From Chlorokybus atmophyticus (Eukaryota; Plantae; Mesostigma and Chlorokybus algae), in NCBI GenBank assembly GCA_009103225.1, contig RHPI01002990.1, positions 700,767 through 764,766 on the forward strand: a stretch of DNA of 64,000 nucleotides. Direction: 5' to 3'. The translations under genes and the position numbers were made by a program. Under the pieces are notes generated by a model. It did not search any database and was not told the DNA's origin. It was given only the letters and a program-made list of their open reading frames with translations. Shown one piece after another: positions 5,739 through 43,430 of the stretch. Every line of letters begins with the position of its first letter. The first letter of the stretch is position 1.

Positions 5739-7280
5739 TCAAGTCCACCCGTTAACAGAAAATCCACCGTCCACTGCCAAAACCTGGCCAGTGATGAAGC
5801 CAGCAGCTGGCAGGCAGAAGTAAGCAACAGCCGAAGCAACTTCGGGAGGCTGACCGACTCGTCGCATTGGCGTGCGTGCAAGAATCTCACCCAGACGCAC
5901 AGGGTCCTCCAGCACAGGCCTCGCGAGCGGAGTATCGATGTACCACGGCGCAACAGCGTTCACGCGAATGTTGTCTTGCGCCCATTCACATGCAAGACCC
6001 CTTGTCAACTGATTCAATGCTCCTGTAAAGACAGCATGAGCCTCAGTACAAAGCTGTAAGCTAAAAAGTCAAGACTGGTATGTGCAACTACACTTGACCC
6101 TAGGATCACCATTGCTCAACAGTGCACGTATGGAACCTTGCGTGTCAGTGTGCTGGTTGATCGTGTATAAGAAAGCCACCCTGCAGTAGAGATGACCGAT
6201 TGGCTCACCTTTGGACATGCCGTAAATGGTGCCGGACTTGATGGCAACCAGCCCAGCCACGGAGTTATTCATCACGACATTGCCTTGACCCGATGCTTTC
6301 AGTAAGGGGTGCGCAAGCTGACACAGGTGGTACACCGCATCCAAGTTGAGGGAGAGTATTGCCCTGTAGTCTTCCTGTGTATACTCCACAGTTGGCTTGC
6401 GGACATTCGTGCCGGCATTATTCACCTGCACAGCCGTTGTTAATGCATCTTGTGGCTAAACGTGTTGCAACCACCATAACAATCACATGTGCTCATTGCC
6501 CGTTGCATCCGTTGTAAAATTGCACAATGGCCACCTCACCAGGATATTCAGCTTGCCACCAAAAACGTTGCTAACTGCTTTCATCAGCTTCTCCCTTGCG
6601 CCTTGGGAGCTGATGTCTGCCGCGCATCCTTCTACCTTTCAGTCAATCCAATGTTAACTCGCCAGGCTCAGCCGTGCAAACTCTCTCAGCATGACGTGAT
6701 TGCGAACTGGACACAACTGGAAAGCCAATGCAACGACTGACGGAGTTGCGCATGGAGACTATATCGTCTTGATGCGCGAGACACATTAGTAAATCAACTG
6801 CAAAAGAGACTGCAGCAGCTGCATGGTGGCGACCTCACCACATGCATTATTCTACTACTAGACACACATGCAAACAACCGTGCCAGTCACAAACAACCAC
6901 AATGCAAGCAGCTTGAAACAGCCATGCCTTACCTGGAGCCCCTGGCCTCTCCAAGCATCCAACTTGGCCTGGAGTTCATCCTGGTTCCTTGCGCAAGTGA
7001 ACACCCGTGCGCCAAGTCGACCCAACTCTTCCACGATTGCAGCTCTGCATCACGACAGCGGCGGGGGATGAGCACCGGTCTGCCAATGCAAACAATCAGC
7101 TGACGGAAAAAGCACTACGCTGAGTATACCACACACATGCACGCAACCATAAGTCTGGTCTCATACTGTCGTGATAGACTGCTAGCAGAAATACTGAGAC
7201 TCTGTGTGTACTGACCCCAAGCCCTTGGTGCCCCCGGTTACCAGCGCCGTCTGGCCATCAAGCCTCCAGCGCTCCGCCAT
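5739..7280 (-). CDS. Tropinone reductase-like short-chain dehydrogenase/reductase (multi-exon)
   Basis: ATG at 7280 gives [22 protein letters not shown]. Later exons give [29 protein letters not shown] (YxxxK) and [30 protein letters not shown]...[16 protein letters not shown]. Stop TGA at 5739-5741. Confidence 0.92.
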
Positions 7281-15644: not shown

Positions 15645-16149
15645 TATCACAGCCCACTCGACCAGAAAAGACTTTGTGCTTTTATGGTTGATTTGTGGTA
15701 ATTTGATGTACCTTCCCGTTACATTGCCCCCCACTCAAGAACGCTGACGTTCTCGGCAGCTGGCTCCCGTCAGCTGGGGAATCATCCCAGGGGTCTGATT
15801 AGGGTCGATCACCGGCCCCACCGCCCAAGGACCGGCCAATCTAGGCCCATACCGGTCAACGCGCACATAGCTCACCGCTGCCGAGCCCCCAGGTCGCATC
15901 GCGACAGGCAGGTCGCGTCCTGCCGACTGAACGCCTGCCATTAGGCAAGTCGCGACCCATCGATGATGGCACTTATGGCCATTTACAATGTTATTGGATC
16001 GAGAAACAACGATCGCGGAACTCGTGTGTAAGGCAAGAGTCGAACCCGAGTCTCAAGCTCCGATGACTTATGTCACAGCCCACTCGACCACAAAAGACTT
16101 TGTACTTTTATGGTCGATTTGTGGTAACTTAATGTACCTTTTCAATACA
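15645..16149 (-). mobile_element. TRIM (terminal-repeat retrotransposon in miniature), copy 1
   Basis: 79 bp direct LTRs at 15645-15723 and 16071-16149 with TG..CA-type ends. 5 bp TSD TGCGG on both sides (15640-15644, 16150-16154). On the minus strand a PPT GAGTGGGGGCAA precedes TGTAAC. The internal region is non-coding. Confidence 0.92.
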
Positions 16150-20744: not shown

Positions 20745-21950
20745 CTATACAATGCCGTTTGCCGTGCTGCATGCGGCTGACTGAAATATTAAAAGTGTCT
20801 CGCTTGACATGTACAGTGATGGTTGGGAGAAATTAAGAAACCAATGAACCACTGACTTAGCGCCGCGGCGACCGCGCCTGCGACTAATGAGGTCCACACA
20901 AAAGGTCGCCAACGCTTCCGCTTCTTCATACGGGCCTCGGACGACAGTATCATGTTGTCGACCATCTTGTACAGAATGTGCCATTCCTTTCACAAAAAAC
21001 GCTCTCAGAATGTTTCTCCAATAGGAACGTCGCCACTCCATCATACTTGACATCAGCGGAGAAGGTCATGTTTAACATGTTCAAAGAAGTTTCTTTGCTA
21101 TGGCGATCTTACAATCGTGGTCGATGTTGCGAGTGGCCAGAATCAACTCGAGTACCTGTTTACCAACCAACGTCCTCGCAATAGCGGGATGTTCCACTGA
21201 GTTTGCAGGCTGCTGGATGCGTTGCTGAATACTGTGGCTGTAACCTCTAGTCAACCAGGCTTGGATGAGGCTGACCACGCCGTCATTTACGATGCCAGCG
21301 TAGAAGGTTATGTAAAATATTATATTAAACTTGCAGCCACCGTCGATATTGAGGCTGTTTAAGAGACTTCCAACCAAGTCCGTGTTTACCAAGACTTGGG
21401 CAACGCTGGGTAGCTTCGCTTGGTTCACAATGTGCCTGATGTACTCCCGAAAGTTGTTGTTGTCACTTCCGGTTTGCACCCGGTTGCGACTGATGGCGAT
21501 CACGTGTTCATTTACGACACCAGCATAGCAGGTCAGGGCGCATGCTATGTCGAACTTCGTGCTGTCGCTAATGTCGGGAAAAGTCAACCACTCCTCCTCA
21601 AATAATGTTGTCGCTATGCTAGGGTCGCACCTCATCAAGTGCACCACTTTCTTATGAATGATCTGCCACAACAGTGGGTTCTAACCTGGCGGCTCTGCCA
21701 TCGCAACAAGATTTGCCACGCCCGCAAATCCCGTCATCTGCCCTCCTTCTGTCGCTGCCATGCTTGCAAGCTGCGGGTCAATCCAATAAGGATTGGTCAT
21801 TTGTATCACAGACTGCAACAGAGACACATGTGCAAGCGACACTCACCATCTGAGGCGCATTTCCATGTCTTTCAACATGTGCAAAGCAGCGTCATAATGC
21901 TCGTGCTCGACTATGTTGTCGTGCTTAAGCGCATGTACGTGTGCAGTCGC
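20745..21950 (-). pseudogene. Disrupted gene for a helical-repeat-like hypothetical protein; likely 3' part of a gene split by the 21979-38621 insertion
   Basis: The 196-aa ORF at 21081-21671 has an internal repeat (KFDIACALTCYAGVVNEHVI / KFNIIFYITFYAGIVNDGVV) and continues in another frame at 20745-21053. An exon-like segment HVHALKHDNIVEHEHYDAALHMLKDMEMRLR with a GTGAGT donor lies just left of the insertion. Confidence 0.4.
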
Positions 21951-23279
21951 AGCAGGCTAAGAATTGTTATCTGGTGATGTCGCAAAATGTTTCCCCTGCC
22001 GGCCGACCGAATGTTGGCAACGGCCGTGAACCTGAGGATACTCATTTAGACTGTCAACCTTAAGTCTACCGGCGATCTCGATACAGGGACCTGAGCATAA
22101 CGGCCGTCACCATCAGTTGGCGGCCGTCTGCATAAAGGGACTGACCCTTAATTAAAAGGTACCTGTCAGGTACTCAACAGTTAGGCAAAGGGGACTTGAC
22201 CTAACTAACAGGTAACCGACGGGTACCTATCAGTTAGGTACCGGCGACTGTACGCTAACTGAGCGAAATTGTCAGGTACTTTAAGGTACCTACCGTTAAC
22301 GATGTGTACTTGCAAAGGTACCTGCTGGTACAGCTCAGTTGTGATTAGGTGTCACACGTGATTGTCATCATCAGTTGTGCAAGGATGCGTGACAAATAAT
22401 TAAAAACATAAAATAAATAAGTTACAATGTAATATACTGAGCTACTACTACTACTGCTAGTACAACCAGACTACCACTACTGCTACCACTACCTTAGGTA
22501 CTACTACTAGTACTACCCTTGTACTGAGCTGCGGCTCCTGCACCGCCCGCTCCAGCTTCGCCGCCGCCGTTCCTTCTCCGCCGCCGCTGCCGCCGCCTGG
22601 CCTGGCCTGGCCGCCCTAAGGCAAGGAGGGTGGTTAGATGGCATGCGGTGTTGCGCGTAGTACAACGTCAAACCGCAACCAAGTTCACATACTGTCCGCC
22701 GTTGCCGCCGCCGCCCACAACGCTCTGTTCAACTTGAAGCCGTTGAGCGTTTAAATAACTTGGGCAGCCCAAGTTATTCAAACGTGTTGTCGAAACGTGA
22801 CTCGCAACGACATTATCGTATTATTATATTATAATGGTACGAAAGTATTAGTTTGGTACAATAGTGCCATTGCGACAATGGCAGTGTTCGTAACATTGAC
22901 ATGGTACGGCGGCTGCATTGTACCAGCGTCGCGACTTGCCGGCCGGTACCACCGTCCCGACTTGCCGACCTTTAGGGATCGGCGGTCACTTGCTTATCAT
23001 ACTTGACACACAATAAGTAGGTCGGCGCCGCGTCAAGTGCACGACCGGCGATCGGCCGTCACTTAACAAACGCGGTAAGGTCATCTGATAGGGACCAATG
23101 GTGACTGGCTTGCCAAAGTAGGCAGGCCGTCGCGCATACTTTTCGACGGTCTAGGTACGACCAACGGTCGGTCGTCAATGTATGTGACTAAAATGTGACT
23201 TATCTGCTATACATAGGTCGCCATTGTCGCGCAAATGGGACGACCGACAATCGGCCGTCACCTTAAAGTGCGGTGTTGC

Positions 23280-23801
23280 TGTCACAGCCCACTTGACCAT
23301 AAAAGACTTGGTGCTTTTATGGTCGATTTGTGGTAATTTAATGTACCTTCCCGTTACATTCCCCCCCACTTAAGAACGCTGACGTCCTCGGCAGCTGGCT
23401 CCCATCAGCTGGGGAATCATCCTAGGGGTCTGATTAGGGTCGGTCACCGGCCCCACCGCCCAAGGACCGGCCAATTTAGGCCCATGCCGATCAACGCGCG
23501 CACAGCGCACCGCTGCCGGCCCCACAGGTCGCATCGCGACACGCAGGTCGCGTCTTGCCGCGCCGGCTGAACGCCGGCGCCACCGCTATTAAGCAAGTCG
23601 CGGCTCATCGATAATGGCACTTATGAAGTGATCATTTACGATGTTACTGGATTGAGAAACAACGACCGCGGAATTCGTGTGCAAGGCAGGAATCGAACCC
23701 GGGTCTCAAGCTCCGATGACCACTGTCACAGACCACTCGACCATAAAAGACTAGGTTCTTTTATGGTCGATTTGTAGTAATCTATGTACCTTCCCGCTAC
23801 A
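23280..23801 (-). mobile_element. TRIM, copy 2
   Basis: LTRs at 23280-23358 and 23724-23801; 5 bp TSD GTTGC (23275-23279, 23802-23806). On the minus strand, PBS-like GTGGTCATCGGAGC follows the 5' LTR and PPT AAGTGGGGGGGAA precedes the 3' LTR. The internal region is homologous to copy 1. Confidence 0.93.
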
Positions 23802-23818
23802 GTTGCCGTCACAGGCAG

Positions 23819-25157
23819 TGTTACGGCCTAGCTACTATAGCTGGTCATGTACAGTGTATATATAAGTTTAATTAGCGAAAGACAAAAGTTTAATGAACCT
23901 TGGTTGGATTATCTTGGTTTGTTACACAAGCTTTGAATGTGTTTGTGTTTGAGCTTTAACACAAGTGCAATGCATCGCTAATTATAGGCCTGGCTAGTTA
24001 GAGCATTTGCATGCATCTAATTAGAAGTGGTTGACTAGGAATTACCATATTCATGAATGTATGGGCGTCTTGAGTAGGAAGATAAAAGCACATGGCTTTA
24101 GTATAATGATTTATTAACGCGATGTGGGCTTATGGGGCCAATCGCGTGAAACATCATCAGAAAAAGCATGTGTAATTATAAGGTTCATTTAGGCCAATCC
24201 AAGGCGGCTTATTTGGATCAGATGAATAGAGCAAAGTAGCCTACCTTAGGGTGAACAAAAAGGACTTCGCGAAATGAGTTCGCGAAGGGGTTGATTCACC
24301 TGCGAAGTGAATCAACGTAGTGAACTAAAATAGTTCACTAGTTCAGTTACGAACATGAACTAAAATAGTTCACTAGTTCAGTTACGAACATGAACTAAAA
24401 TAATTCACTAGGGGTTCGTAAGTGAACTAACATAGTTCACTGGTTCAATTACGAACATGAACTAAAGTAGTTCACTAAGGGTTCGAAGTGAACTAAGTGA
24501 ATCAAGTGAATCACCCTAATATGAGGGGAATAATAGAACAGGGAGCCAAAAGTGAATCACTGGTGAACTAAGTTAGTTTACCAGTAAAGTGATTCATAAA
24601 GCCGACAAGGTAGTGAACTAAAGTTGATTCACTAGTGAATCAACTATTAGATCACTTCGCGACGCGACGTCGCGACAAAAAATCGGCTAAGGCATTTGCC
24701 CCCTCCCGCGTGTGCCGATACGCAGCGCATGGCAGCGCCGTCTGCCATGGCCGCAAGCACAAAAATCGCGGATTCGCATTATTGGTCACTTTGCAGAATG
24801 CCAGTGAACTAATGCCGGGTGAACTAAACTAATCACTTGGGTGAGTGAATGGGGATCTGGTAGAGGGCTTTGAACCAAGTAGGTCTTAGCTAAGATAGTT
24901 CCTAGTAAAGCTCATGGCGATGGATTTCGCCATAAAAAAAGAGCCAGTCGCGTGTGGAGGGTAGCCGCCGCACGACTTGAGCTCGGGGCTTTTGGGGCTA
25001 AGGTAGGGGTACCTAAGCTAGGTGACCATAACCCTTGAATTACCAAGTAGTTGTTCATTCAACGAAAGGTGATTAAGGGAGTGTACAGTTACTACATGTA
25101 AAGTGTGTGATCACTGTACATAGTTTTGGTGATAATTTACCCCCGCACGGCGTAACA
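23819..25157 (+). repeat. 5' LTR
   Basis: Near-identical to 37109-38438: about 28 substitutions and one 9 bp indel counted by eye. Confidence 0.97.
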
Positions 25158-25246
25158 GCTGGCCTCGGAGCTTGGACATACGATTTTGAACCACTCAGGC
25201 CGTGGTTTGGGGCCACTTTGATTCGAAAATTCGCGCTTCCGAAGTG

Positions 25247-25689
25247 CATGCCGAAACAACGCCGGATTGGAAATTATCACAAGTGGCGTGAGACTTTTAA
25301 TAGTAGCGCCAGTGAAGAGGATTACCGCGAATTAGAAGCCTATTTCGAAGAAAAAAGGCTAGTCGCGGCAATGGCGGAACAGGCGGAAACTTCGAGTCCA
25401 CCGATTCCCCAGCTAGGGAAAAAGATGGAACGAAGAATAGCCAAGTTGTCGCCAAAATACAAGAAAATAGCCTTGGCTTGTTGCAAAGAGGGCAAAAAGG
25501 CCAAGCCAGGCATCTTGAGGCTGGTGAAGAACCTCGAGAAGAATGAGGAGGAGCTCACGCGCCTCCGTGTCCTTGGGGAGCAGAAAATGAAAGAACTCGA
25601 GGACAAAATAGACTCAGTCCAAGTAGGACCAAGTACCAAGTTTCTAAAAATTCCCCCGGCATGGACAGGCAAAAAAGGGGAGGATATAC
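25247..25689 (+). pseudogene. Gypsy gag N-terminal part, interrupted by the Plavaka insertion
   Basis: The ORF ends KFLKIPPAWTGKKGEDIR at the insertion and resumes after 32357 as STLVDAWWNQVEVTL. Confidence 0.8.
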
Positions 25690-26251
25690 GTCGCAAATTT
25701 TACACGGTGACTGACTAAGGACTGAGGGACTGACTGGTGCCTGAGCCTGCCTGAGCCTGCCTGTTGCTGCCTGAAATATTACTTTTGGACTGTTGGGTTT
25801 GCCGTTGGCTTAAGTGGACTGACGCAGACGGCCGCGGGCCGAAAGTGGTTGTCAGTGGCACTAACCGGCCGAGAGTTGTCAACCAGTTACCCTTTGGTCG
25901 ATGTGCACAGACGGCCGTTGACCGGTAGTTACGGACAGCTGACAGCAATAGCCGGCAGTTTCTTTGCCGTTACACTGCTGTTAATATGTGACCCTTGCCA
26001 TTTGACAAAAGTTGGCAATTCTTGCCGTAAGCCAACACTAACATGCCATGCAGCTTGTACAAACCTTGGACTGATTGTTTGGTCTTGCACCTAAAAGCCC
26101 ACAATATATACAATGTACGGGCAGTGGTGAGAGTATGTCCACTTACAACTGAGCAGCCGACTTGCGCATGAAACTATCCTATAACATTGAGTCTAGCTGT
26201 CGGACTCATGCGCAGCTTGTCAACCCGTGGTGCCTGCCTCAGAACTCCTCC

Positions 26252-27290
26252 TCAAACCCCCTCCTCCTGTTCCTCCTCCGACGAGTCTTCTGCTTCAACG
26301 CCGGAGTCATCTTCATCCGCTGCCTCGCTCGCTGACAGTACAGCGGCTACTTCGTCCTTCAGCTTGAATGTCAGCGCCTCGCCGTGCACGCGCATGCGCT
26401 TGATGGTCGCTTTGAGAGTGACCACCTGCATTTGGTAATGCTGTAAGAGTGGCGTGCTGCCAGAGGACTAGCCCATCAGCATACACACGCTTACCTCGTC
26501 TTCCGCTTTGTTGCACTCCGCCAGGCAGACAGTCAGCCTGCCGCGCTGCTCTTGGTTCACTCTGACCAACATGGCAATCTGCAAGCATACTGCTTAATTA
26601 CCGCTGGAAACATTAAACTAGGTCATAGATTACCCGTTCGTTTGACTCCGCAGCTTCTCTTTTGCGACTTGTGAGCTCCCGCAAGTAGAAATAGGCTGTG
26701 CATTTGCGAGATTGGTCATGCTGTTCATGTGCATGACACTGGAGGTTGTGCATGAGGGTGTGCATGTCGTATCGACAATGTATGTCAAGTGCAAGATACT
26801 TGAGGCTGTGCATGTGCAAGATAAAAGAACCCTAGCATGTGGCATTGACAGTGCATCGTAACCCACCTTGGTTATGCCAGTCTTGTTTGGTCCCTTCAAT
26901 CATGTCGCCGTGGTCGCAGCTGCTGGTGGGTCGGATTTTCTTAGAGGCAGTATTTTGGTGTGCCTTTGCCCACTCGGAGGGGGAGCCCTGTAAGATATCG
27001 CCCGAGTCACTGTTGTCATTGGATGTGCCCTTGGTAGTCTTGGTGGGTTTGACACCGAGGACACCCCTCCGGCACCCTGCCCGCCCTGTGCGAACATGGG
27101 ATTCATCCCGGACCTCGACCACAATGCCCACTACGCCCCTGGCAGCGCCGCCAACGATCTTCCAAACGCCACATACCCTCGGCATCACGCCCCTGTAAGG
27201 GCATAGCTTGGCGGAGCTATCAATGGTGTTTTCATGCGCAGGGGGATTGACATTGCCAGAGTTGTCAATGGTACGAACTGCCATTGCCAT
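26252..27290 (-). CDS. Transposon accessory gene: four exons, predicted coiled-coil plus acidic C-terminal tail, unknown function
   Basis: Phase-consistent GT-AG splicing gives ...WHNQ|AYFYLRELTSRKREAAESNER|IAMLVRVNQEQRGRLTVCLAECNKAEDE|VVTLKATIKRMRVHGEALTFKLKDEVAAVLSASEAADEDDSGVEAEDSSEEEQEEGV* (TGA at 26252-26254). The start is uncertain. Confidence 0.6.
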
Positions 27291-27396
27291 TGTACAAAGG
27301 TACCATTAAAATGGTACCTTTGTACCATTAAGGTACCATTAAAATTAAGGTACCATTAAGGTACCATTAAAATGGTACCTTTGTACAATGGCAATG
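27282..27396. repeat. 115 bp palindromic cassette of GGTACC repeats between divergent transposon genes
   Basis: Perfect 26 bp arms cattgccattgtacaaaggtaccatt / aatggtacctttgtacaatggcaatg enclose further aaggtaccatt repeats. A second perfect palindrome, tcgtaccattataatggtacga, lies at 27501-27522. Confidence 0.9.
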
Positions 27397-27679
27397 TCTT
27401 TTGGCAAAGGCATCTTCGTACCATTGACACGGTTCAATCAGATGTATATATATGTATATAAAAACATCCAGAGACTTACCCTGGACGTGCAATGGCTCGA
27501 TCGTACCATTATAATGGTACGACGGAGCCAGTGACTGGCGGCCAAGTTTCCCGCCTCTGGCATGCAAGGGTAGCGGTAGCGGTGGCGGTGGCGGCGGCGG
27601 CGGCGGCGGCGGGTGTGCGTGTTGCTGGATATGATGCAGGTTACATTGGCGACACCTGTGTCGACGTTAGTAGTGAGAT

Positions 27680-30600
27680 TTGGGAGTCCTTTGTCCGTAT
27701 TGCCACATGCGCTTCGCCACACGCAGCTCGGTCTACATGCACATTATTAGCAGCAGGGTGTGCAAGCAGATCAAGCTGTATGTCGGCCAGCGTCCATTAC
27801 AGTACGATGCGGGTCATGTTGAACCGGGGAGTTCGATCCAGGATGCTCACATGCTTGATGCTGAAGGATTCCTCCAGGAGACACACGCACAGCAGCAACA
27901 GGAGGAGGAGGAAGTGAACGAGGGCTTTCGATGTGTGCGTGTGCCTGAGAAACCTGTGGCACGCCAACATGGAAGTGGAGGCGTCCCTTCGCACGCGTCG
28001 GAATCCAGGTGGTATGGCTCGGAGCATGCTCTTGCAGTGGCATTCGTGCAGTGCAACAACGGCCAAGGCCTGTCGGCCTCCGACATGGGGCGGATCATCA
28101 AGTGCATCCGAAATGCACACTTCCTGACGGAAGAGCTCCAGTGGGAGACCGGTGTGCATGCGGCCAGCTACCTCCGGACCACGATTGCTTTCTCTCAGTC
28201 TGAGGTGTGTTCACGGTGTGCGGTGCATGTGCTTCAACCATCAGAGCCATGTCACATATGCACATGCGAGTGTGCTGCCGTATCAGAACTACGTGACGGC
28301 TGACCTGCGCAAGCCTGGAGACCCTGAGGATCAGGACATCTGCGTCACATATATGCCGGCCAAGGTCTGTGAAATGCAGTACCTAATGCAGTATCGATGC
28401 AGTATCTATTCTGAGGCCAGCATAGTAAGTAATGCTCTTGGTCGGAGCAGGTATGGCTCGCGCGGTTGTATGGCAATCCACATGCCGCCAATGGCTTCAA
28501 TCTCCAGTACACTGGTGACGAGCACAGCTTTGGCCATCCTTCCACGGGCGATTGGTGGAAGGATGTGGAGGTGGATTTGAGGAGAGAGGTGGGGGAAGCG
28601 TCCTACTTGGCGCCTGCCATTCTGTACAGTGACAAGACCACGCTGGACAGCGCGGGCAAGCGCTCTGGCTACCCTCTGATGGCATCGCTTGCCAACTACA
28701 GTTGGGACATGTATGCTAGCAACATGGGGGTTGTTATGATAGCGCTTCTGCCGGTGGTTCACGCAGTGGCCGGGCATCCCACCTGGGCGCAGGGCAAGGA
28801 ATCGTTCTCCATTCGGAAACGTGAGATTTTTCATGACGCTTTGAATGTAGTGTTAGGGGATGTGAAGCGGGCGAGTTGGGAAGGTCTGCAGCTCATCGAC
28901 CCGAATGGCATCGAGCGTCGTGTGTTTCCCGCGCTTGCCAACAACATCAGCAATTTGCAGGTAGTGGGCATGAATGGTTGTAACCGGATGCAGCCTGCCA
29001 GCAAACAGTGCATGGAGGATGTTGTCAGTAGAACATCTGAGTTTGTCGTGTTGTAGGAGACTGCCACACTCGCACGCACTGTGTCGGGCAACCAAACACG
29101 ACATCCTTGCGATGTTTGTCTCGTCACCAAATCAGATCTGTTGGAGATGGATGAGGACCGGGAATTGAGAACCGAGGCCTTCTACACACCAGCAATACGT
29201 CAGCTGCGGGCGGACCTGCATAGCGGTGTTAGGAATGCACGCCAGACAGCCAAGGCTTTCAAAGAGCAGCACTCCATGCATGTCGAGGAGGTAATGGTCA
29301 AATTACCGGCATTCGTGAGGATGAATGGCTTTCCGTGAAACCAGGCAATGTGGTTTGGCAACAGAATGCACTGTGGGGTTGGCGACAGTCGCGGGTGCCG
29401 GGAGCTGACTGCTACTCTCGTCTTGCCCCTGACGCAATGCATGTGCTGGGAGGCATCATTGACCACCTGCTTGCTGCTGTGTACGACGCCGCGAAGGAAC
29501 GAATGCGTCCATCCACGAGACAGATTCTGCAGGCCAGGCACGTCTTTGGTGTTGCTTTTGTGTTGAACACAAAAGCCAACAACACGTGCTCACGAGCAGA
29601 TGTGCACAGGCTGAATGCATGCAAGGCGACTCTGCGGGTTTCGCACTTCAAGGCACCCACAAGCACAGTAGATTTCTTCCTGTCCGACCACTCCTTTCAG
29701 GTGGTGGAGAAAGTGGCGGTGCTGCAGCTGCTGCCGGTCCTCGCAGACGGTTTGCTGCTCGACAGTGAGGGCAACGATTTCTTCACCATTGCTGCCGCAT
29801 CGCTTGCCCAGTGGAACAAGAAGTTGCTGAAGGCGCATGAACACACAAGAGAGACCCTGACCACAGCCGACAACGAGCTGGCTGCCTTCAAAGCTGCAGT
29901 GTTGCATCCGCTACTGTCGTCATATTCTGCACAGAAGTCAGGTTGGAAGATCGAGAAGATGCATCAGCTCACTCATTTTGGGCCGGCAATTGTCAGCAGT
30001 GGACACCCAGATTGGTTCAGCGCCAACCGCATGGAGCAGACGCACGCCCAAAATATCAAACGGTGGGCGCGTGGTGGCAACAACCGGGACTACCAGGCAC
30101 GTATCCTGAAGGCATGGAGCTGTGCGGAATATGTGAGAGAGGATGGCATGGTCGTGGATCCCGAGATGCGCTCGGTCATGGCGCAGGCGCGGCAGCAGTG
30201 CTGTAATGTCATGGAGAAGACGGACAAGTTGCTACGGATGGATGTGCTGACAAGGAGGGAGTCCAGCCCGTACTGGAGCGGATCTGCGCGTAGCCGCCAA
30301 GTCGCCTTGAAGACTCCATTTGCCGACAAGCTGCCTGCCACCCTGGACAGCTGGTTGAGGAGGGAACAACTGGAGTTGGCCGACGGGTGGCGTGCTGTTC
30401 GCGTGGTGAACGGAGGCGCAGCGGTGTACATGACATCAGGAGTCAGCATGGCGCGCGCAACTGGGATGTTCCATGGGCGGCCTTGGTTCTCTACACTTGA
30501 GTTGGAAGGTGATGAGGACGGTGTGAACGTGACGTGGTGGGCTCAGGCACTCCTTTTTCTGCGCGTGGTGGTGTGGGGTGGTAGCGGCGAGCGCGTGTGG

Positions 30601-30822
30601 AAGGAGGTCGTGTTTGTCCGCTGGTACACGAAGCTGGATGTGACGAGCGACACAAAGTGCATCGCTCTGGAATGGGAAAAGCGTCGAGGCGGTCCACATC
30701 TCGATGTCGTGACTCTGGAGCAAGTAAAAGGCATTGTCCAGCTGCTCCCCATGTTTGACAAGGACAGCGCCCGTGTACAAGAGGGCAAGTATTGGGTGAA
30801 CGTTCACTGCACTTCCACGTGA
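27680..30822 (+). CDS. Plavaka transposase with an N-terminal C2H2 zinc finger (multi-exon)
   Basis: CPYCHMRF..VYMHIISSRVC; GDWWKDV; PAILYSDKTTLDSAGKRSGYPLMASLANYS; DPNGIERRVFPALAN; HPCDVCLV; LAPDAMHVLGGIIDHLL; KMHQLTHFGPAIVSSGHPDWFSANRMEQTHAQNIK; C-terminal EVVFVRWY...VKGIVQLLPMF. The true start is probably slightly upstream. Confidence 0.85.
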
Positions 30823-31059
30823 CACATGTACTTGTCTCACTACTCTGAGTTTGGAGCATATCAGTCAGTTAGGCATTGCTAATCGTATGCTAAGACTTTT
30901 GCATGTGGACGTGTACAATACCGGGCAGCTGTAATTGCACAACTGTCACCACAATCGAATGATCCATGCAACATTCAACAATCAGTCCGCCGTGTGGCAT
31001 TAAGCATCAGTACAGTGCACCACACTCAAGCCTCACAGTTCCATGACACAGGAGGGTAG

Positions 31060-32286
31060 TCACAGCGCATCCATTGTTTCAAGCATGAGACGCCCTATGC
31101 ACTCCGCCATTGCGGGAGGAACTGCATTCGCTATGGAAACGGCCGAGGTCATCCATGGCACTCCCAGCGCTGTTTGCCACGCAGCAATGCCGCCCCTGGT
31201 GCTTGGAAGGCCATAGACCGGGTACATCTGCTGTGGCGCGTTTGATGTCACGATTGTCTTCTTCGCGCTAGCGGACAGGTGCGGCGATAGCAGTCCAACT
31301 GCCTTGCCCGCGTGCGAGCAGCGTGCTGGTGGGGTAGCTACCACTGGCTGTGTCTCAAACAGACGGTGTCGGAAAGTTGATAGGCCAAACATCGTGCCAC
31401 AAAGGGACAGATTGGGTCTGAATGAGGAAGCTGCTCCTGGCACATTCTCAATCACAAACTTGTACTAGCTTGCAAGCAGCAGACGTCGGACGAGCGGTAT
31501 CATATCCTGGTGTCTCCAGGATGTGCCATGTGCCGCCCGTTGAGGTGCCGGGATAGCACCTGAATAGGCCTGGCATGGTGGACTGGCCCAGATGAGCTCG
31601 TACTCGCTCAGCTCTCCTGCACTCAGGGTGCATACATCGCGGTGTATGAAGGGCAGCGGGTACTCAGAGGAGGGACTTATGTCCATCCCGGTCACGTCAA
31701 AGCCTGCGTGGTATAGACCGACACTGGCACCGCCACCGCCGCAGAATAGGTCGAGTGCCCTTGGTCTGCGTGTGCGTCCCAGCTTGTTGTCAAATGGCGT
31801 GTATGTGGTCAAGGCTGGCCGTGGTGCTGGCCAGGGACTAACAATGATGCCGTCCGGGCTTACTTTGCGACTGACGTTCTCCCCTCCGGCGCGCAGAACA
31901 TGGCGTGCCCCGTCAACTGATGTGTACGCGAATACGTTGTGCCCTTTGAAGTTGATGGTTTGTGGTCGATCACCGTCATCGAATACTATACGGTGCTGCC
32001 CTGCAAAGACATTTTCCATTGCACCATGCATATATGATGCGTCCTCAATCTCGCACGCCACGAAGCGATGCTGACCTGACGCTTGCTTGAATGATTCCAC
32101 AACGCCCGCATACCATTCCCCATCCAGCGGCCAATGCACCATGACACTCACACCGATCAGCTGCTCGCATCCCAACTTGACTGCGTTCCGCAGCCGATGC
32201 AGTGCGCTGTCCAACGGTCGATGGTCTGCCTCCTCTACAGCGGCCAGGGGATGGAACTGCCCACGCCCACACCGTGCAAGACTGCT
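31060..32286 (-). pseudogene. Tudor domain fused to a phage/bacterial-type C5 cytosine DNA methyltransferase; one premature TAG; 5' exon missing
   Basis: Removing a 75 nt GT-AG intron (32001-32075) gives the Tudor LIGVSVMVHWPLDGEWYAGVVESFKQASGQHRIVFDDGD. MTase motifs follow: I (ALDLFCGGGG), IV (WASPPCQ), VI (VIENV), VIII (RHRLFE) and IX-X (WQTALGVPWMT..IANAVPPAMAECIG). In-frame TAG at 31465-31467. Confidence 0.88.
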
Positions 32287-32357
32287 CTGAATGCGACAAC
32301 AGCTTCAACATGCATGAAATAAGCATACGCCCAATATAACATGCAGTGATACGTCGC

Positions 32358-35300
32358 GGTCCACTCTTGTAGACGCTTGGTGGAACCAAGTCGAAGTGAC
32401 TTTGGCTACGGTTCCAGAAAGGCAAAGGTTGGGTTTTGCCGCGGGATACTTAGGTCCAGAACCACTTCAGTTGTGAAAGGACCATAGGTCTCATTTGGTT
32501 GAGCCCACCTTTGAATCCCTAAAGGAGTTTTTGTTTAGCCAATATAGGACAGTGGACCCCGGGCTTGATGCCAGGGATAAGCTATCCGACTTGAAACAAT
32601 CGGGCAAGTTGATCACGGAATTTGTGAGCCAATTCAACCTGTTAGCGGCTCAGGCTGCAAATGGGGGAAAGCCACTAAGCCTGATTGAGAATGCCGACCT
32701 ATTCATTCGAGCCTTGGATTCTAAGCTCCAAAAGCAACCAGATATTATGCGGTTGCAAAAGACCGATATAGAGTGGACTCAGGAGAAGTTCACGGAGCTT
32801 GAGAACATGGCGAGATGGGTCGGCCGGAATTTGGCTAGCATTAACAAAAGGGATAGAGAAGAGGGTGGAGACAAATCCGGGGGAGGAAAGGGAAAGAGGA
32901 GAAAATGATTTGCCCCCCAATCGGAGATGGAAAGTCCGGTTGAAAACTTTTCACCTTGAACTTTTCACCTTGAAGGAGAAGTCTTCAAAGACCCCTCTAA
33001 AGAAAAAGGGTAAAAAGCCGTTTGGCAAGAAACCCTTTAAGCCAGCCTACCAGGGCAAGGCAAGACTCTCCAGTGAAGAGAAGGAGAGAAGAACTCGCGA
33101 AGGTTTATGCTTCAATTGTGGCGAAAAGGGGCATATGGTCTCCAAGTGCCCGGAGAAGGGAGCAAAGCCGACCGAGGATCCCGCCAAGTGACGGTGTGGG
33201 GTGGTTGCTTGTATAGGAACGGCGCCAGAAGAGCAGAGTAGTGGGCGACTTGAGAACAATAGTTGTATAGCTACAACGATGAAGTTGCCTATGAAATGCG
33301 ATGTTTGTTTTGGGAATGAGTTTGAAGATTTGCCAAGGATCAATTCACTTGAGGTAGGGCATGAGCGAATTCTCATATGCGTGCCACTTCGTGAGTTAAC
33401 AAGTACTTTGACAAATTATTGGCAACTAAAGCAAACTAACCCCGAAATTAAGGCGTGTGTTCTAACACCCAAATATTATGATAAGTGGAAAAGGTTAGGC
33501 GGTATGCGCCGTGTGGGCACATTACCAAAGGCCAAATCACCTTTTGCCACTGACTTGCAAATGTGGTGTGATGATGCAAGTGATCGCCGAGGTTCACAAA
33601 TAAATCCTAGGCTAAGTATGGTCTTCGATGCATTAGTGAATGATAGGGCATGTGGTGTCTTAGTTGACACTGGTGCCTTAAATAATTTTGTAAGTGCCGA
33701 ATTGGCAAAAAGGGTCTCGGCCACCATTGAAACTACCAATGCTAGGGCAAGCCTAGTAGGTGAGTTACATTGTGAAGTAAGTGGCGTGACAGAGTTGCTA
33801 ATTCGAATGGGGGATTATAGGACCAAAATTAAGCTGTATGTGGTCAAGTCCCTTATTCCAGGCATAGACGTGATATTAGGTGATAGTTGGCAAAAGCACG
33901 TGAAGTTAGAATTAACAAGCGTGCCACCTTCTATTACAATCACACAAGGTGACAAGCGTTTTGCTTTGACACCTAGTAGGAACCGTAAGCCTAACAGAAG
34001 GAGTACCCACCATCGACCCAATGGATCAATGGTTAAAGGGTGACTCCGAATTGGCTGTAGGTTGCCTAAGCATAGTGGGGGACTTGGAAGAGTCAAGTGA
34101 AATTGATTGGGAAAAGGTACACCCGGTGGTGAGGGAGTTTATGGATATATTCTCCGCGGATCTACCAAGTGCACCGGCAAATAGGTTTGTCTCCCATTTA
34201 ATCCCACTAAAGAAAGGGGCTGGGCCTCCGCCGTTAAGGCCATTGTATAGGCTAAGTCCCAAGGAACGTGATGAAGCAAAGAAGCAGGTGAACTATCTCC
34301 TAGAAAAGGGTTTGATAGTCGAATCGCAAAGCCCCTATTCGGCTAATGTAATTTTTGCCGAAAAGAAGGGAGGCAAGCTCCGAATGTGTGTTGATTATAG
34401 GTCATTAAATGCACAAACGGTGATGAATGCCTTCCCCTTACCGCGTTTGGATTTGGATTTCGATGATTTGTATGATCAACTAGTTAGGAAGTCGTGGTTT
34501 AGCACCCTCGACCTAACTAGTGGTTACCACCAAATACCTATCGCGATAGAAGATAGGTATAAGACAGGGTTTAAAACCCCTATGGGTCATTACGAATATA
34601 CGGTGATGCCATTTGGCTTGTGCAATGCGCCAGCCACATTCCAAGCGGTAATGAAGTATTTAAAGAGGAGGTAGGGAAATTCGTCCTAGTGTACTTGGAT
34701 GATGTTATTGTATTTTCAAGTACAAAAGAGGAACATGTGCTTCATTTACGAAAAGCCTTGAGTAGGCTAAGGGAGCATAAGTTCTTGGCGAATTTCAAGA
34801 AGTGTGACTTCTTTGCAAGGGAAGTAGAGTACTTGGGTAATATTGTAAGTGAAGATGGAATAAAAGGCGATCCAAAGAAACTCGAAAGGGTTAAAGACTG
34901 GGCTGTTCCTAAGAATGTAACGGAATTACAGAAATTCTTGGGTTTTTGCCTATGGTTCCGCCGTTTTATTTTAGGCTATTCAATTATAGCCGCTCCACTC
35001 ACTACTTTGACAAGTACTCGAAAACCCTTCGAATGGGGTCCTAAAGAGCAACAAGCCTTTGAAAGGCTTAAGGCTGCTATGACCTCACTTCCGGTATTGA
35101 AGTTGCCGGAAATGGACAAGCCATTTGAGGTAATAAGTGATGCCTCTTTGGCAGGAACCGGGGCTATACTAGTGCAAGAGGGGCATCCAGTAGCCTTTGA
35201 GAGTTTCAAGTATAAGCCCACGGAGAAAAATTACTCAACCACCGATCAAGAATTATTAGGTGTTGTGAAAGCGTTGCATAGATGGAGGTGTTACTTAGAG

Positions 35301-36949
35301 GGGAGACCTTTTAAGGTGATAACTGATCACAACCCCTTAGTACACCTAAATACGCAACCTAATTTGTCGCGACGCCAAGTAAGGTGGCATGAGTATTTGG
35401 TGCGATATGATTTTGATTGGGAATATAGGCCAGGTAGGATAAATGCGGCAGATCCTTTAAGTAGGCATCCCGCATTGTCCGAGGATTTGGCGTTACTTGC
35501 ATTGGATTATGTGAGTGACATTCCTAACCAAATAATCGCAAGTTATACTAATTGCCCGGAGTTCCTTTTGGAATTCAACCAAGTGTTAAAACCACATGGG
35601 GCATTTTGGTATAAAGATGAAGAAAAGATTGCGGTTTCAATGGATAGGTCACTTAGGTCAAAGGTGATTGAAGAATCACATAATCCCCCTTACGGTGGCC
35701 ATTTTGGTATAAGGAAAACTACCGAGTCTTTGGCTAGAAGGTATTGGTGGCCGACCTTAAGAATTGATGTCGAAAGCTTTGTAAAGAATTGTGACTCATG
35801 CCAAAGGAATAAATCCGTAAGGACAAAACCGGCCGGGAAATTACAACCGTTACCCATACCAGAGGGGGCTTGAAAGTCAATATTAGTTGACTTTATAGTC
35901 CAATTACCTAAAACGGTAAAAGGGAATAATGGAATGGTTGTGTTTGTAGACCGGTTTAGTAAGGTTGTTCACTTAAAACCAACTCCTCCAAAATTTACGG
36001 GCGAGGATTTTGCCCATGCCTTTTTCAGGAGATGGTACTCACAACATGGGATGCTCGTGGATATGATTTTGGATAGGGATTCGCGGTTCATTCTTCCGCT
36101 TTTTGGCGTGAATTATTTGAAACACTGAATTTGGATAATAAGTTATCCACCGCGTTTCACCCTCAAACAGATGGGCAAACCGAGCGTGTGAATCAGACAG
36201 TGGAACAACTATTGAGGCATTACTCACTAAAGAATATTAGAGATTGGGATACATATCTCCCTTTCGTTGAGTATGCCATCAATGATTCAGTGAATGAGTC
36301 AACGTGGATGACACCATTTTATATTGGTTATGGCCGCCATCCATTAAGTCCAGTTGAGGCTTTAATGGAGAATATGGGGGCTAGGAAAAGAGTCAACCCC
36401 TCGGCTCAAATTTTGGCTCAACGATTAGGGCAGGTGCAAAATGAGGCCAAGAGGGCCTTATTAGCAACCCAAAATCGTATGCGTCAATATGCCGATGCCA
36501 AGAGGGCAGAGGCCATGTTTGAAGTGGGACAAGAAGTCCTACTTAGCACAAAGAATGTGAGGATGGAGTCTCTCAATGGGGCCCGAAAGCTATTACCCCG
36601 ATGGCTTGGACCATTTAAGGTAATAGAAAAGATAGGGGCTGTGGCATTCAAGTTAGAATTGCCACCGAGTCTTAAAATACATAATGTATTTCATGCCTCG
36701 CTATTGAGAACCTATCACTCAGATGGGTCGGTGCAGCCACCACCACCCCCAATGTTTATAGAAGGAGATTGGGAGTATGAAGTGGAGGGAATAATAACCC
36801 ACAAAGGCCGGTCAGGCAGATCTCCCAGTTACTTTGTGAAATGGAAGGGTCATCCGTTCGAAGCATGTGAATGGGTTGACGAACCTAACATGCGATCACC
36901 GCTTCTGATAAAGAAATATTCGAGGGAGCTAACGGTTGGCCAAAGATGA
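32358..36949 (+). pseudogene. Gypsy gag C-terminus (CCHC knuckle) and pol (protease, RT, RNase H, integrase, chromodomain) with stops and frameshifts
   Basis: CFNCGEKGHMVSKC; LVDTGALNNFV; LRMCVDYRSLN; DLTSGYHQI; VYLDDVIVFS; SDASLAGTGAIL; GGHFGIRKT..CDSCQ; STAFHPQTDGQTERVN; EYEVEGIITHK..YFVKWKGHP (chromodomain). TGA at 35871-35873 and frameshifts near 32.9 kb and 34.65 kb. Confidence 0.95.
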
Positions 36950-37108
36950 AGTCCAGGTAGGTCCATTTCTGAAAATATATATTTTCCGCCTTTAGAAGTA
37001 GTTCCACGTTTTTACCTATCAAGTTACTGATCATGGCTTGTTTTCCTAGGTTGGAAAGCGTGGAGAAAGAAATTGAGCAGAGACGCTCAATAACTAAAGG
37101 GGGAGCTT

Positions 37109-38438
37109 TGTTACGGCCTAGCTACTATAGCTGGTCATGTACAGTGTATATATAAGTTTAATTAGCGTAAGACAAAAGTTCAATGAACCTTGGTTGAATT
37201 ATCTTGGTTTGTTACACAAGCTTTGAATGTGTTTGTGTTTGAGCTTTAACACAAGTGCAATGCATCGCTAATTATAGGCCTGGCTAGTTAGAGCATTTGC
37301 ATGCATACAATTAGAAGTGGTTGACTAGGAATTACCCTATTCATGAATGTATGGGCGTCTTGAGTAGGAAGATAAAAGCACACGGCTTTAGTATAATGAT
37401 TTATTAACGTGATGTGGGCTTATGGGGCCAATCGCGTGAAACATCATAGGAAAAAGCATGTGTAATTATAAGGTTCATTTAGGCCAATCCAAGGCGGCTT
37501 ATTTGGATCAGATGAATAGAGCAAAGTAGCCTACCTTAGGGTGAACAAAAAGGACTTCGCGAAATGAGTTCGCAAAGGGGTTGATTCACCTGCGAAGTGA
37601 ATCAACATAGTGAACTAAAATAGTTGACTAGTTCAGTTACGAACATGAACTAAAATAGTTCACTAGTTCAGTTACGAACATGAACTAAAATAATTCACTA
37701 GGGGTTTGTAAGTGAACTAACATAGTTCACTGGTTCAATTATAAACATGAACTAAAGTAGTTCACTAAGGCTTCGAAGTGAACTAAGTGAATCACCCTAA
37801 TATGAGGGGACTAATAGAAGAGGGAGCCAAAAGTGAATCACTGGTGAACTAAGTTAGTTCACCAGTAAAGTGATTCATAAAGCCGACAAGGTAGTGAACT
37901 AAAGTTGATTCACTAGTGAATCAACTATTAGATCACTTCGCGACGCGACGTCGCGACAGAAAATCGGCTAAGGCATTTGCCCCCTCCCGCGTGTGCCGAT
38001 ATGCAGCGCATGGCAGCGCCGTCTGCCATGGCCGCAAGCACAAAAATCGCGGATTCGCATTATTGGTCACTTTGCAGAATGCCAGTGAACTAATGCCGGG
38101 TGAACTAAACTAATCACTTGGGTGAGTGAATGGGGATCTGGTAGAGGGCTTTGAACCAAGTAGGTCTTAGCCAAGATAGTTCCTAGTAAAGCTCATGGCG
38201 ATGGATTTCGCCATTAAAAAGGAGCCAGTCGCGGGTGGAGGGTAGCCGCCGCACGACTTGAGCTCGGGGCTTTTGGGGCTAAGGTAGGGGTACCTAAGCT
38301 AGGTGACCATAACCCTTGAATTACCAAGTAATTGTTCATTCAACGAAAGGTGATTAAGGGAGTGTACAGTCACTACATGTAAAGTGTGTGATCACTGTAC
38401 ATAGTTTTGGTGATAATTTACCCCCGCACGGCGTAACA
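37109..38438 (+). repeat. 3' LTR
   Basis: Direct repeat of 23819-25157, preceded by the PPT and followed by TSD GGCAG. Confidence 0.97.
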
Positions 38439-38622
38439 GGCAGGCCGCCGTCGATTGTACTTATCAGTTGATCGCTTGCCGTCGGTATATGTTGCTTAAT
38501 AATAACGGCCGTCCTAAAAAGTCCCTTTATGGACCAATCTGTTACGTCAGGTAGGGTCAGGCAGGGTCAGGCACCCGTCAGTCCCTCAGTCACTTATCAG
38601 TCACCGTGTAAAATTTGCGACG

Positions 38623-39186: not shown

Positions 39187-40207
39187 CTCTTTAATGGTTA
39201 AATCGTGGGGAGTATTGTCCTGCAGCGATTAATGCTGTTCTTTTTCTAGCTCTGTCGCCGTCAGATAACTTGCGCTGCTGTCGGTGGTGGCAAGCAGCCG
39301 AGGCAATGCGAGACATGACAAGGCAAGGCAAGGCAAGTTGCCCGAGGCAACCACTCCTGTCACACTTGTACCTTCGACTCGAGCTCCTGGAAGCGAGCTA
39401 GAAGCGAGGTAGAAGTCTATCTTGACTCTCGCGAGTTTGGAAGCCATCTCAAACTCTGTTGGGATGGCCGTGCCACGGTGACTGGACTGATGACTGGATT
39501 GCCGGTAGTGGCGGTCTTTGCTCGCCACGACTGCGCTGAGGCGGCGGCGGCGGCGGCGGCGGCGAAATGCAGTGGGGTGGCAAGTGATTGCGGCTGGGGT
39601 TGGCAGGGGGAGGCGGCGTCTTACCTCTCCTGCTGGCTGCTCGCTGCCGTTTTGTGGGGCTGGTGAGGGAGAGTGGGAGGTTCGCCATGGCAGGTACTTG
39701 GTTGCTGACATCTGCATGACGGTGCATGGTGAATGACTCTTACATGTGTGTGCCTGTGTCTGCGCGTGATGACTGCTGCATACGCACATGTGCGTATCGC
39801 TGTGCTGACTGCTGGGTAACAGTTGCGCGTGCGTGCGTGGGCGTGTCTGTGCACTTGCATAGGGGTTTATAATGAATGATGAACAACGTCGTGTGTTTAC
39901 ATCTCTGCGTGCATGCATTCCCGTGTGCATGTGTGACTGCATGCACGTTTGCGTGTCCTTGACAGCTGACACTCTCTCTGTGCTGTGTGTAAGTATGTGT
40001 TTCATAGTGGATCTCAACAATGGATTGTTGTGCGCGTGCGTGCTGACGGCATGCCCTTGTATGTACTCCAGCACATGTGCAACGGCTGCATGCACATGTG
40101 CTGGGGAATTGAATGCGTCCGCGTGTGCGTGTGCGTGATCACTGCGGCATGTAGGTCTGTGAGCATGTGCATTTGGCTAACGGTAGCCACGCTCAGTGTA
40201 GGTCAGC

Positions 40208-41302
40208 ATGGCTACAAAAGGAGAGCAGCAATGGTGGCGCAGCGTCGCTCAGAAACAATGGCACATCACGCGGGGACGCTTGCGCGCAGTTGCGACATGG
40301 GCGGAAGCGATGCTAATAACGATACTGGCGGGCGTAGTGTTGCTGAAAGACATGCTCGAGTTGTTGGCGACAGCTGTGTTGGCTGTGTTGGCTTTCTGGC
40401 ATTGGCGTGATGGCAACACTGCCCGATTCGTCGCGGATTCATGGGAGAAGCTGGTGGATTGGAAAGAGCACTTATCAGTATACCTGGTCGAGGAATGTGC
40501 ACACCCCGGCGAGTTTGTGACGCGGATGTTGAGTCAGCTGAAGAGTGAGAGGGTGTGCACATCCGCCATCGACTTCAGCGGGCACATTGCGTGTGGCATC
40601 GAACCTTCCCCACTCCTGAAGGTGACGGTGATGCAAGCGGCTGTACCGCTATTGCTGGTGGTGTTGGGCATACTGTTCTGGCGTCAAACCAGGTGTCTGC
40701 TACATAGTTGTGGGTGGGTATGCATTTGGGTGTTGCGGTTACCTCTGCGAGTACGGCGAAGAGCACTTCATTTCTTTGACTGCTTGCCGGAAAAGACAGA
40801 CAAGGCGGTTGTCACCGATGAAATCATCATCCCTGCTGCGCCTGCTGGCGCCTTGGAGGTGACCTACAAGACAGTGGTATATGTAGCGTTGCCTGCCGTG
40901 CGTGTGGGAGCCGTGGAGGAGTACGAGCACTGGGATTATGTCATTGAAGATGACTACCATCTTTGCAAACTGCGCGACAAGGGAGAGCAGTCGAACAACG
41001 AGCCATCGATGGCGGATCTCATACGCTCCATTCGAGGTGACAAGGTTTTGGTGGCGTCCTTCGCACCACTCAAGGTGGTACTGGAGACAGTGAAGTTTGA
41101 GACGTACGGTGGCGTTATAGAACATAATAGTAGAGAGTTTCACCTTTGCAAAAGGTGCAGAGTTAGCGAGGAGGCAGTGGATGAATATCAGGTGCCAGTT
41201 GAGGAGGTCCTGGTGCGCCGTGCGATTGTGGAGCAGGCGCGCAGGGTTGCTGCCAGGATAGGCAGGAAGCGTCAGTTCACCTTGCTGCCTTGGGCGAGTT
41301 AG
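40208..41302 (+). CDS. Hypothetical 364-aa membrane protein (uninterrupted ORF)
   Basis: ATG-initiated 1095 nt ORF with hydrophobic segments MLITILAGVVLLKDMLELLATAVLAVLAFWHW and AAVPLLLVVLGILFW. No family recognised. Confidence 0.55.
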   Translation: MATKGEQQWWRSVAQKQWHITRGRLRAVATWAEAMLITILAGVVLLKDMLELLATAVLAVLAFWHWRDGNTARFVADSWEKLVDWKEHLSVYLVEECAHPGEFVTRMLSQLKSERVCTSAIDFSGHIACGIEPSPLLKVTVMQAAVPLLLVVLGILFWRQTRCLLHSCGWVCIWVLRLPLRVRRRALHFFDCLPEKTDKAVVTDEIIIPAAPAGALEVTYKTVVYVALPAVRVGAVEEYEHWDYVIEDDYHLCKLRDKGEQSNNEPSMADLIRSIRGDKVLVASFAPLKVVLETVKFETYGGVIEHNSREFHLCKRCRVSEEAVDEYQVPVEEVLVRRAIVEQARRVAARIGRKRQFTLLPWAS

Positions 41303-43228: not shown

Positions 43229-43430
43229 NNNNNNNNNNNNNNNNNNNNNNNNNNNNNNNNNNNNNNNNNNNNNNNNNNNNNNNNNNNNNNNNNNNNNNNN
43301 NNNNNNNNNNNNNNNNNNNNNNNNNNNNNNNNNNNNNNNNNNNNNNNNNNNNNNNNNNNNNNNNNNNNNNNNNNNNNNNNNNNNNNNNNNNNNNNNNNNN
43401 NNNNNNNNNNNNNNNNNNNNNNNNNNNNNN
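43229..43430. other. Assembly gap (202 N) flanked by a poly-C tract
   Basis: Run of N followed by C33 at 43431-43463. Confidence 1.

Follow-up and report, generated by a model that had tools for sequence, protein, structure and literature searches.

A gene predicted to join a Tudor domain to a compact C5 cytosine methyltransferase is observed inside a Plavaka DNA transposon of Chlorokybus atmophyticus. The window, which is the whole stretch of DNA analyzed, covers 64,000 nt of contig RHPI01002990.1 (GCA_009103225.1). Its genes have short GT-AG introns and are eukaryotic, and the transposon, hereafter called the insert, is embedded in nested repeats. It occupies positions 25689 to 32369 (6,681 bp) within the gag region of a Gypsy retrotransposon. 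The insert is interpreted as a decayed copy, with one end left, of a PlavakaA-type transposon that is likely multi-copy and carries a Tudor-methyltransferase gene. Intact copies, judging from their domains and motifs, would read histones and methylate nearby cytosines. We consider this whole interpretation somewhat more credible than not. That the gene is the cargo of a Plavaka family is highly probable.

The limits of the insert were determined by empty sites. Joints, depths and differences between copies were taken from contigs of public runs; X1 and X3 are two runs from two studies, and X5 was also used. Contigs containing the Gypsy element without the insert show the joint 25686>32370 at depths of 8.85 (X1) and 14.7 (X3), and a further joint 25687>32373. 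The insert is therefore delimited at 25689-32369, flanked on the plus strand by the 2-bp target duplication TA at 25687-25688 and 32370-32371. The original prediction, made from the sequence of the window, had placed the limits at 25690-32357, which is wrong. An 8-9 bp direct repeat, once considered as the target duplication, is excluded by the empty sites.

Only one transposon end is preserved. The left end at 25689-25763 (+) begins CGTCGCAAATTT and is 92% identical over 76 columns (E 2e-23) to positions 38548-38622, the end of a second element described below as the sister element. No terminal repeat matching the left end is found on the right side of the insert, whose right limit falls within a predicted exon of the methyltransferase gene. 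Termini paired by GTCGCAAA had been proposed, but this motif is present at the left end only; the GTCGC near 32352 lies inside the insert and points the same way, and the inverted partner at 38548-38622 belongs to the sister element. An X3 contig continues past 32370 with ten open codons in the methyltransferase frame, a weak signal read by hand, as a second frame is open and the sequence may be the flank of another copy. This copy is best read as cut short on its right side.

PlavakaA elements have TGT..ACA ends and 2-bp target duplications, and Serpula PlavakaA ends begin TGTCGGAAAAAT (Kojima 2025, PMC12730594). The duplication is 2 bp long in the insert (TA) and in the sister element (GA). 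The end of the insert starts with CGT, and its TGTCGCAAAAT is close to the TGTCGGAAAAAT of the Serpula ends (Kojima 2025 Fig. S2). Two inverted ends of the form 5'-TGT..ACA-3' are not observed in the insert. Because it has one end only, the insert is assigned to a truncated relative of PlavakaA and not to a complete member.

The transposase gene at 27677-30822 (+) has five predicted exons, and removal of four GT-AG introns of 74-96 nt yields 935 open codons. PF18759 matches it with E 6.2e-21 (75.4 bits; cut-off 26.3). The C(2)C and H(3-4)H motifs located after the second D and before the last E are present in the spliced model as HPCDVC and MHQLTH. CxxC, HxxxH and the final Glu are motifs that define the CMCT clade (PMC12730594). 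In Atlas features, the last exon scores 0.93 to two clusters, in which 46% and 19% of the members carry PF18759. These results confirm a Plavaka transposase on the plus strand. The C2H2 zinc finger originally attributed to it is weak (PF00096, E 0.096, under the cut-off). By motif placement, the first D and the last E of the DDE triad are presumably present, and the codon at 28952-28954, at the probable position of the second Asp, encodes Asn. Homolog searches with the transposase gave no match.

The accessory gene at 26252-27293 (-) has three predicted exons and an acidic tail. Its splice model agrees with the spliced minus-strand gene proposed originally. Two of its exons had no Pfam match, and no family is assigned. 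It lacks one base near 27044 in comparison with most other copies (88.6/88.6 in X1, 94.6/140.7 in X3). The accessory and transposase genes face each other head to head across an array of short GGTACC-centred palindromes at 27282-27533, with families D1, D2 and D4 and inverted pairs I1-I4 and I7.

The Tudor-methyltransferase gene at 31060-32369 (-) lies tail to tail with the transposase gene. Introns are predicted at 32235-32352 and 32001-32075, and the 5' side is removed by the end of the insert. The methyltransferase domain at 31063-31770 (-) is recognized by PF00145 (23.8 bits against a cut-off of 22, with an in-frame stop read as X), by phrog_363 (E 1e-26) and by a fold model. The motifs FCGGGG, SPPCQ, ENV, RHRLF and NAVPP are all present, which bears out the Tudor-methyltransferase gene of the original prediction. 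FxGxG, PC, ENV and RxR occur in this order and are invariant or nearly so in 150 relatives; we take them to be motifs I, IV, VI and VIII. Profile matches include M.HaeIII, M.HhaI and DNMT2.

The fold model built from the 150 relatives has a predicted local distance difference test (pLDDT) score of 90. All 37 listed PDB matches to it are C5-type enzymes, led by M.HaeIII, DNMT1 and DNMT3A, at 12-19% identity. The best viral fold match is the methylase of Pithovirus LCPAC201, with 36% identity, ahead of the others by ten orders of magnitude. BAH, PWWP and SNF2, companion domains typical of the host DNMT families (DNMT1/MET1/CMT, DNMT3/DRM, DNMT5 and ChloroDNMT), had no Pfam match in the part of the gene present, which lacks the 5' exons, and the tree described below was made without host DNMTs. 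A single-sequence fold of the whole fusion is uninformative (pLDDT 32).

The reading frame of this copy is not intact. An in-frame TAG at 31465-31467 (-) lies between the PC and ENV motifs, where homologs have a residue and no gap. Two bases are missing near 31068, causing a frameshift, and no in-frame ATG is present upstream of the Tudor domain in the insert. The original prediction named none of these lesions. Most other copies keep the two bases (113/207 in X1, 146/146 in X3). The neighboring frame behind 31068 reads DYPP, and the two extra bases of the other copies lead into that frame. A DYPP-type C-terminal motif is seen in nine of the 275 proteins compared, all of them from a subfamily with an inserted MBD (below). 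As most siblings have these two bases and the base near 27044, this copy has lost coding features that are kept elsewhere. It is a passenger and makes no enzyme. The working self-encoded module originally envisaged is not supported for this copy, given its stop, frameshift, missing 5' part and single end.

Two ways of reading through the TAG were rejected. Decoding as Gln under genetic code 6 was considered since all open reading frame ends checked are TGA, but it gains no support, as the standard code already leaves four Gypsy frames open, with 283, 234, 432 and 290 codons. A 27-nt intron spanning the TAG would delete a helix present in all aligned relatives. The TAG may be private to this copy or family-wide, as the list of substitutions in other copies covers 40 of 462 rows and omits six differences known from one contig.

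The Tudor domain at 31945-32160 (-) is of the RDM15/PDS5 type and is split by a 75-nt intron. In the PDB, the N-terminal frame matches best, by sequence, the Tudor domain of RDM15, 7DE9 (E 1.9e-4). RDM15 binds H3K4me1, histone H3 monomethylated at lysine 4, through W616, Y623, Y641, D643 and D645, and contacts H3R2 through E647 and Q654 (PMC8184781). When the GT-AG intron at 32001-32075 is removed, W, Y, F, D and D align without gaps to the five H3K4me1-binding residues; without splicing, the last three positions fail. Atlas gives Tudor-clan leads with scores below 0.9. The match and the cage in register support the original Tudor assignment. From these residues, a role as a methyl-lysine reader is well supported, and H3K4me1 is the likely mark, as a prediction.

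Depth suggests that the three genes likely spread together. The ten bins wholly inside the insert have depths of 42-175 in X1, where the low bin reflects skipped repeats, and 151-319 in X3; the seven bins in the Gypsy interior have 10-19 and 13-50, respectively. Two bins that fall mainly on the methyltransferase gene (137-151 in X1, 253-306 in X3) match the transposase bins. In single long contigs, the insert and the Gypsy element show 96-103 versus 9-12 in X1 and 130-137 versus 13-17 in X3, about ninefold, although contig depth is not a copy number. In X5, seven of the eight listed pieces fall in the insert, two of them in the methyltransferase. Together with the empty sites, the ninefold depth in two runs indicates dispersed copies of a mobile element. 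Even depth over all three genes suggests that they were likely amplified as one unit, so the original proposal that the gene rides in the transposon holds as likely cargo. Five of the six listed long insert contigs from X1 and X3 are identical to the window at every base, suggesting that the family is young.

Searches with the methyltransferase found 3,433 and 4,148 relatives, mostly short prokaryotic or phage-type proteins. About 30 relatives share extra signatures with the window enzyme and carry an additional segment in the target-recognition region. In three of four tested members of the closest group this segment is an MBD (Pfam, above cut-off); the MBD of P0007 was precomputed. A quick tree of 74 rows was built from the window enzyme, 28 subfamily members and the 45 best-scoring of 192 short proteins, leaving out five near-duplicates and other long or two-domain proteins. 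In this unrooted tree without bootstrap, the window enzyme groups with the 28 segment-bearing relatives apart from the 45 short proteins (SH-like approximate likelihood ratio test support 96). The window enzyme itself has no such segment. Viral and metagenome scans with methyltransferase alignments showed, among the listed matches, no Plavaka exon, subfamily segment or Tudor domain in 312 loci at E 1e-3. The term "phage-like" used originally is too coarse, given this grouping and a giant-virus enzyme as the best viral fold match. The enzyme appears to derive from a virus-associated, MBD-bearing subfamily, and to have lost its MBD-like segment and gained a histone reader.

The compact C5-methyltransferases with an MBD-like segment include P0006, P0007, P0008, P0010, P0018, P0128, P0129, P0134 and P0242. 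P0242 is named as a JGI Chrzof1 gene from an unplaced scaffold of a green alga, presumably Chromochloris zofingiensis. A sister group with a longer segment contains P0011, P0022, P0034, P0268 and 14 others, from metagenomic contigs of up to 245 kb; one of these proteins comes from a Tara 0.22-1.6 um sample. A giant-virus origin for this sister group is conjectural. In P0268 the N-terminus carries a zinc finger, zf-CW-like by eye, a second reader fusion. P0002-P0005, P0009 and P0127 have two complete compact C5-methyltransferase domains in tandem, with about 450 residues. The subfamily is a compact C5 group with an MBD inside the target-recognition region, in which reader domains appear to change.

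In the favored interpretation, intact copies of the transposon would express the Tudor-methyltransferase fusion. The Tudor domain would dock on nucleosomes with low-methyl lysine, likely H3K4me1, and the predicted enzyme would methylate adjacent cytosines, most likely those in copies of the element itself that are transcribed or have just been inserted. In plants, H3K4me1 accompanies methylated gene bodies. A self-written mark could therefore make the copy resemble ordinary methylated host chromatin, or damp its own activity. The parts of this interpretation differ in strength. That the enzyme is intact and under selection in at least some copies is a little likelier than the contrary. Tudor-guided self-methylation as its actual job is less likely than not. 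It is doubtful that the whole history can be read as a young family that took a giant-virus-type methyltransferase, exchanged the MBD-like segment for a plant-type H3K4me1 Tudor domain, and would write 5-methylcytosine (5mC) on copies of itself or along the bodies of host genes.

Several observations weigh against this interpretation. X1 or X3 may be the source of the window's own assembly. No contig bridging the transposase and methyltransferase genes is among the 31 listed of 1,198 pieces, and the 5' part and second end of other copies are not seen in the listed contigs. The TAG, the missing start codon and the Asn of the transposase could be common to the family. The unspliced Tudor domain is below the Pfam cut-off (12.7 against 27.2 bits). 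The H3R2 pocket of RDM15 is not kept, with P and G at the positions of E647 and Q654 in ungapped register, so the mark specificity may differ. The Tudor fusion is present in none of the 268 fetched relatives, and there is thus no cross-species conservation. The tree comes from a quick search and has neither bootstrap values nor a root. The CpG level of the insert is 0.79, compared with 0.73-0.82 in the host flanks, indicating no extra depletion; in so young a family this level is neither for nor against self-methylation.

The alternative that survives best is a dead hitchhiker: part of a gene of the host or of an endogenous virus was taken up by a Plavaka element, was already broken in the master copy, and was amplified without function. 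We regard it as unlikely. The in-frame TAG, the lack of a start codon and the possible loss of the catalytic Asp of the transposase all agree with it, as would a TAG shared by other copies; silent orphan DNMTs of viral origin have been described (PMC12344493). A gene dead since the master copy fits poorly with the intact catalytic motifs and Tudor cage, and with the absence of the two frameshifts of this copy from most others. The loose end in X3 at 32370, whose ten codons continue in the frame of the gene, points weakly in the same direction.

It is improbable that the fusion acts mainly in targeting or in trans, tethering the transposition complex to H3K4me1 chromatin or altering the methylation of host genes without marking the element. 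There are precedents: chromodomains of retrotransposons steer insertion, and RDM15 works in a host methylation pathway through the same cage (PMC8184781). However, the Tudor domain is joined to the enzyme and not to the transposase, nothing shows contact between the transposase and the fusion, and this copy was inserted into another transposon.

The methyltransferase gene could also belong to a different mobile element, comparable in copy number and placed tail to tail with the Plavaka here. One TA duplication frames all three genes, a stretch of only about 240 bp in which no terminus-like repeat was found separates the two stop codons, and the depth is level across the junction bins. These observations leave two separate repeats very improbable, despite the lack of a Plavaka end beyond the methyltransferase gene in this copy and of a bridging contig among those listed. 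An assembly error that clipped a full-length element at the right junction would account for the end inside a predicted exon and for the lack of a junction-spanning contig among those listed, but it is hardly credible, as both sides carry an exact TA duplication and the Gypsy sequence continues from the base that the empty site predicts.

It is not settled why transposons should carry DNA methyltransferases; for retrotransposons, the activity of the enzyme has been shown but not its purpose (PMC5890265). In a cut-and-paste element, no reverse-transcribed copy needs protection, and a retained writer with a histone reader would therefore point to chromatin-guided self-marking. The fusion is small, with a catalytic domain of about 235 residues and a Tudor domain, and lends itself readily to assay. 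If the more far-reaching history of a giant-virus-type enzyme with an exchanged reader is true, a transposon would have built an epigenetic writer that is compact and looks programmable. The value of the case is limited for now by the dead copy and the single genome.

The element that hosts the insert is a chromodomain Gypsy long terminal repeat (LTR) retrotransposon at 23819-38438 (+), flanked by the target duplication GGCAG on both sides. It has profile matches to gag, protease, reverse transcriptase, RNase H, integrase and Chromo, and it carries several frameshifts and stops. The domain matches, LTRs and duplication agree with the nesting proposed originally. Its LTRs differ by 28 substitutions in 1,330 bp (2.1% divergence), which gives an upper bound on the age of the Plavaka insertion. 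A single 12.9-kb element from 25689 to 38622 was considered and is excluded, as the Gypsy element has intact LTRs and its own duplication.

The Gypsy element is in turn nested within the sister element, which spans 21978-38622, has both ends and a GA duplication, and is likely non-autonomous. Its ends are TGTCGCAAAA at 21978 and TTTGCGACG at 38622, in the pattern TGT..ACG. By its ends, it is probably a relative of the insert that displays both end types of the family. The interiors of the two elements have no common sequence by blastn. After subtraction of nested repeats the sister element is about 1.5 kb long, and the X1 joint 23279>38432 represents the form without them. Short GGTACC/GTAC-rich palindromes at 22140-22330 and 22830-22960 resemble by eye the array at 27282-27533; between the two, no blastn alignment was significant. 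They are possible candidate binding sites for a protein of the element.

Other features of the window are as follows. Another repeat with a small hairpin has two copies (15647-16127 and 23282-23780), 88-92% alike, with a depth of about 290 in X1 and X3. Open frames at 40202-41302 (+, 366 codons) and 21081-21680 (-, 199 codons) have no Pfam match at the cut-off. Host genes encode a short-chain reductase (5739-6455), an ankyrin protein (8641-8937), a cation-efflux transporter (57451-58741) and a phospholipase D (60400-63540), the last presumably of plant type. A run of N is located at 43229-43430.

The combination had originally been put forward as one not known to be described. This overstated its novelty, since a DNA methylase-SET gene in a red-algal Plavaka and chromodomain-DNMT retrotransposons are in print. 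In the literature searched, which leaves most subscription papers and Repbase outside its coverage, no Tudor-C5-methyltransferase was found in a DNA transposon. Plavaka has been reported in green algae and streptophytes, with methyltransferases unmentioned in the available part of PMC13519894, and in giant repeats of Amoebidium (PMC11244446). The available parts of PMC13535494, PMC6459981 and bioRxiv 10.1101/2021.11.30.470311 hold nothing closer.

The enzyme itself resembles compact viral C5 enzymes (phrog_363; Pithovirus LCPAC201 A0A481Z4Z4) and the MBD-segment subfamily (P0006, P0010, P0018 and P0242, among others) in its compact fold and motifs, with BLAST identities of 35-48%. It shares its extra signatures and C-terminal motif with the MBD-segment subfamily. 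It differs from all of these in the lack of a target-recognition segment and in having introns and an N-terminal Tudor domain. In the available part of PMC12344493, companion domains are said to be generally lacking in orphan DNMTs that come from viruses. The Tudor domain shares with that of RDM15 (7DE9; PMC8184781) a cage of W, Y and an aromatic residue with two Asp in the same register, whereas RDM15 is a host factor of RNA-directed DNA methylation without a catalytic domain, and equivalents of E647 and Q654 are absent here. Bdelloid N4CMT (PMC8885841) is also a foreign methyltransferase joined to a histone reader, in a histone-read, DNA-write arrangement. It is, however, an N4 enzyme with a chromodomain, and a domesticated host gene that marks transposons instead of being their cargo.

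Mobile elements with a C5-methyltransferase, for which self-methylation has been proposed, are known among retrotransposons. SymbioDIRS/LINE and KnitGypsy-Dnmt3 carry DNMTs, with de novo CG activity shown (PMC5890265), and EpiLTRs combine a chromodomain, DAM and DNMT (bioRxiv 10.64898/2026.05.21.726589), so that they too have a histone reader. In these retroelements the enzyme, mostly DNMT3- or DNMT4-related, is located in or appended to the open reading frames of the element. In the insert, a DNA transposon carries a separate spliced gene whose reader is fused directly to the enzyme.

The closest systems are other Plavaka elements. Fungal PlavakaA and PlavakaB share with the insert the PF18759 transposase, the C(2)C and H(3-4)H motifs, the 2-bp duplication and ends near TGTCGGAAAAAT, although the end of the insert begins with C and not with T as in fungal PlavakaA. 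Among the fungal elements only PlavakaB carries TET genes (PMC12730594); the cargo is an oxidase of 5mC, whereas the PlavakaA-like insert carries a predicted writer. The giant Plavaka of the red alga Bostrychia carries the accessory gene PAG2, in which an N6-type methylase is joined to a SET domain (bioRxiv 10.1101/2025.02.11.637652). Like the insert, the PAG2 elements are Plavaka transposons with accessory genes, one of which joins a DNA methylase to a chromatin domain, and they have inverted-repeat arrays beside the accessory gene. They are 17-19 kb long and encode an N6/N4-type enzyme (PF01555) with a SET writer, in contrast to the C5 enzyme (PF00145) and Tudor reader of the insert. Epigenetic cargo in Plavaka is therefore already known, and the present case adds to it, in a dead copy, a C5 writer joined to a Tudor reader.

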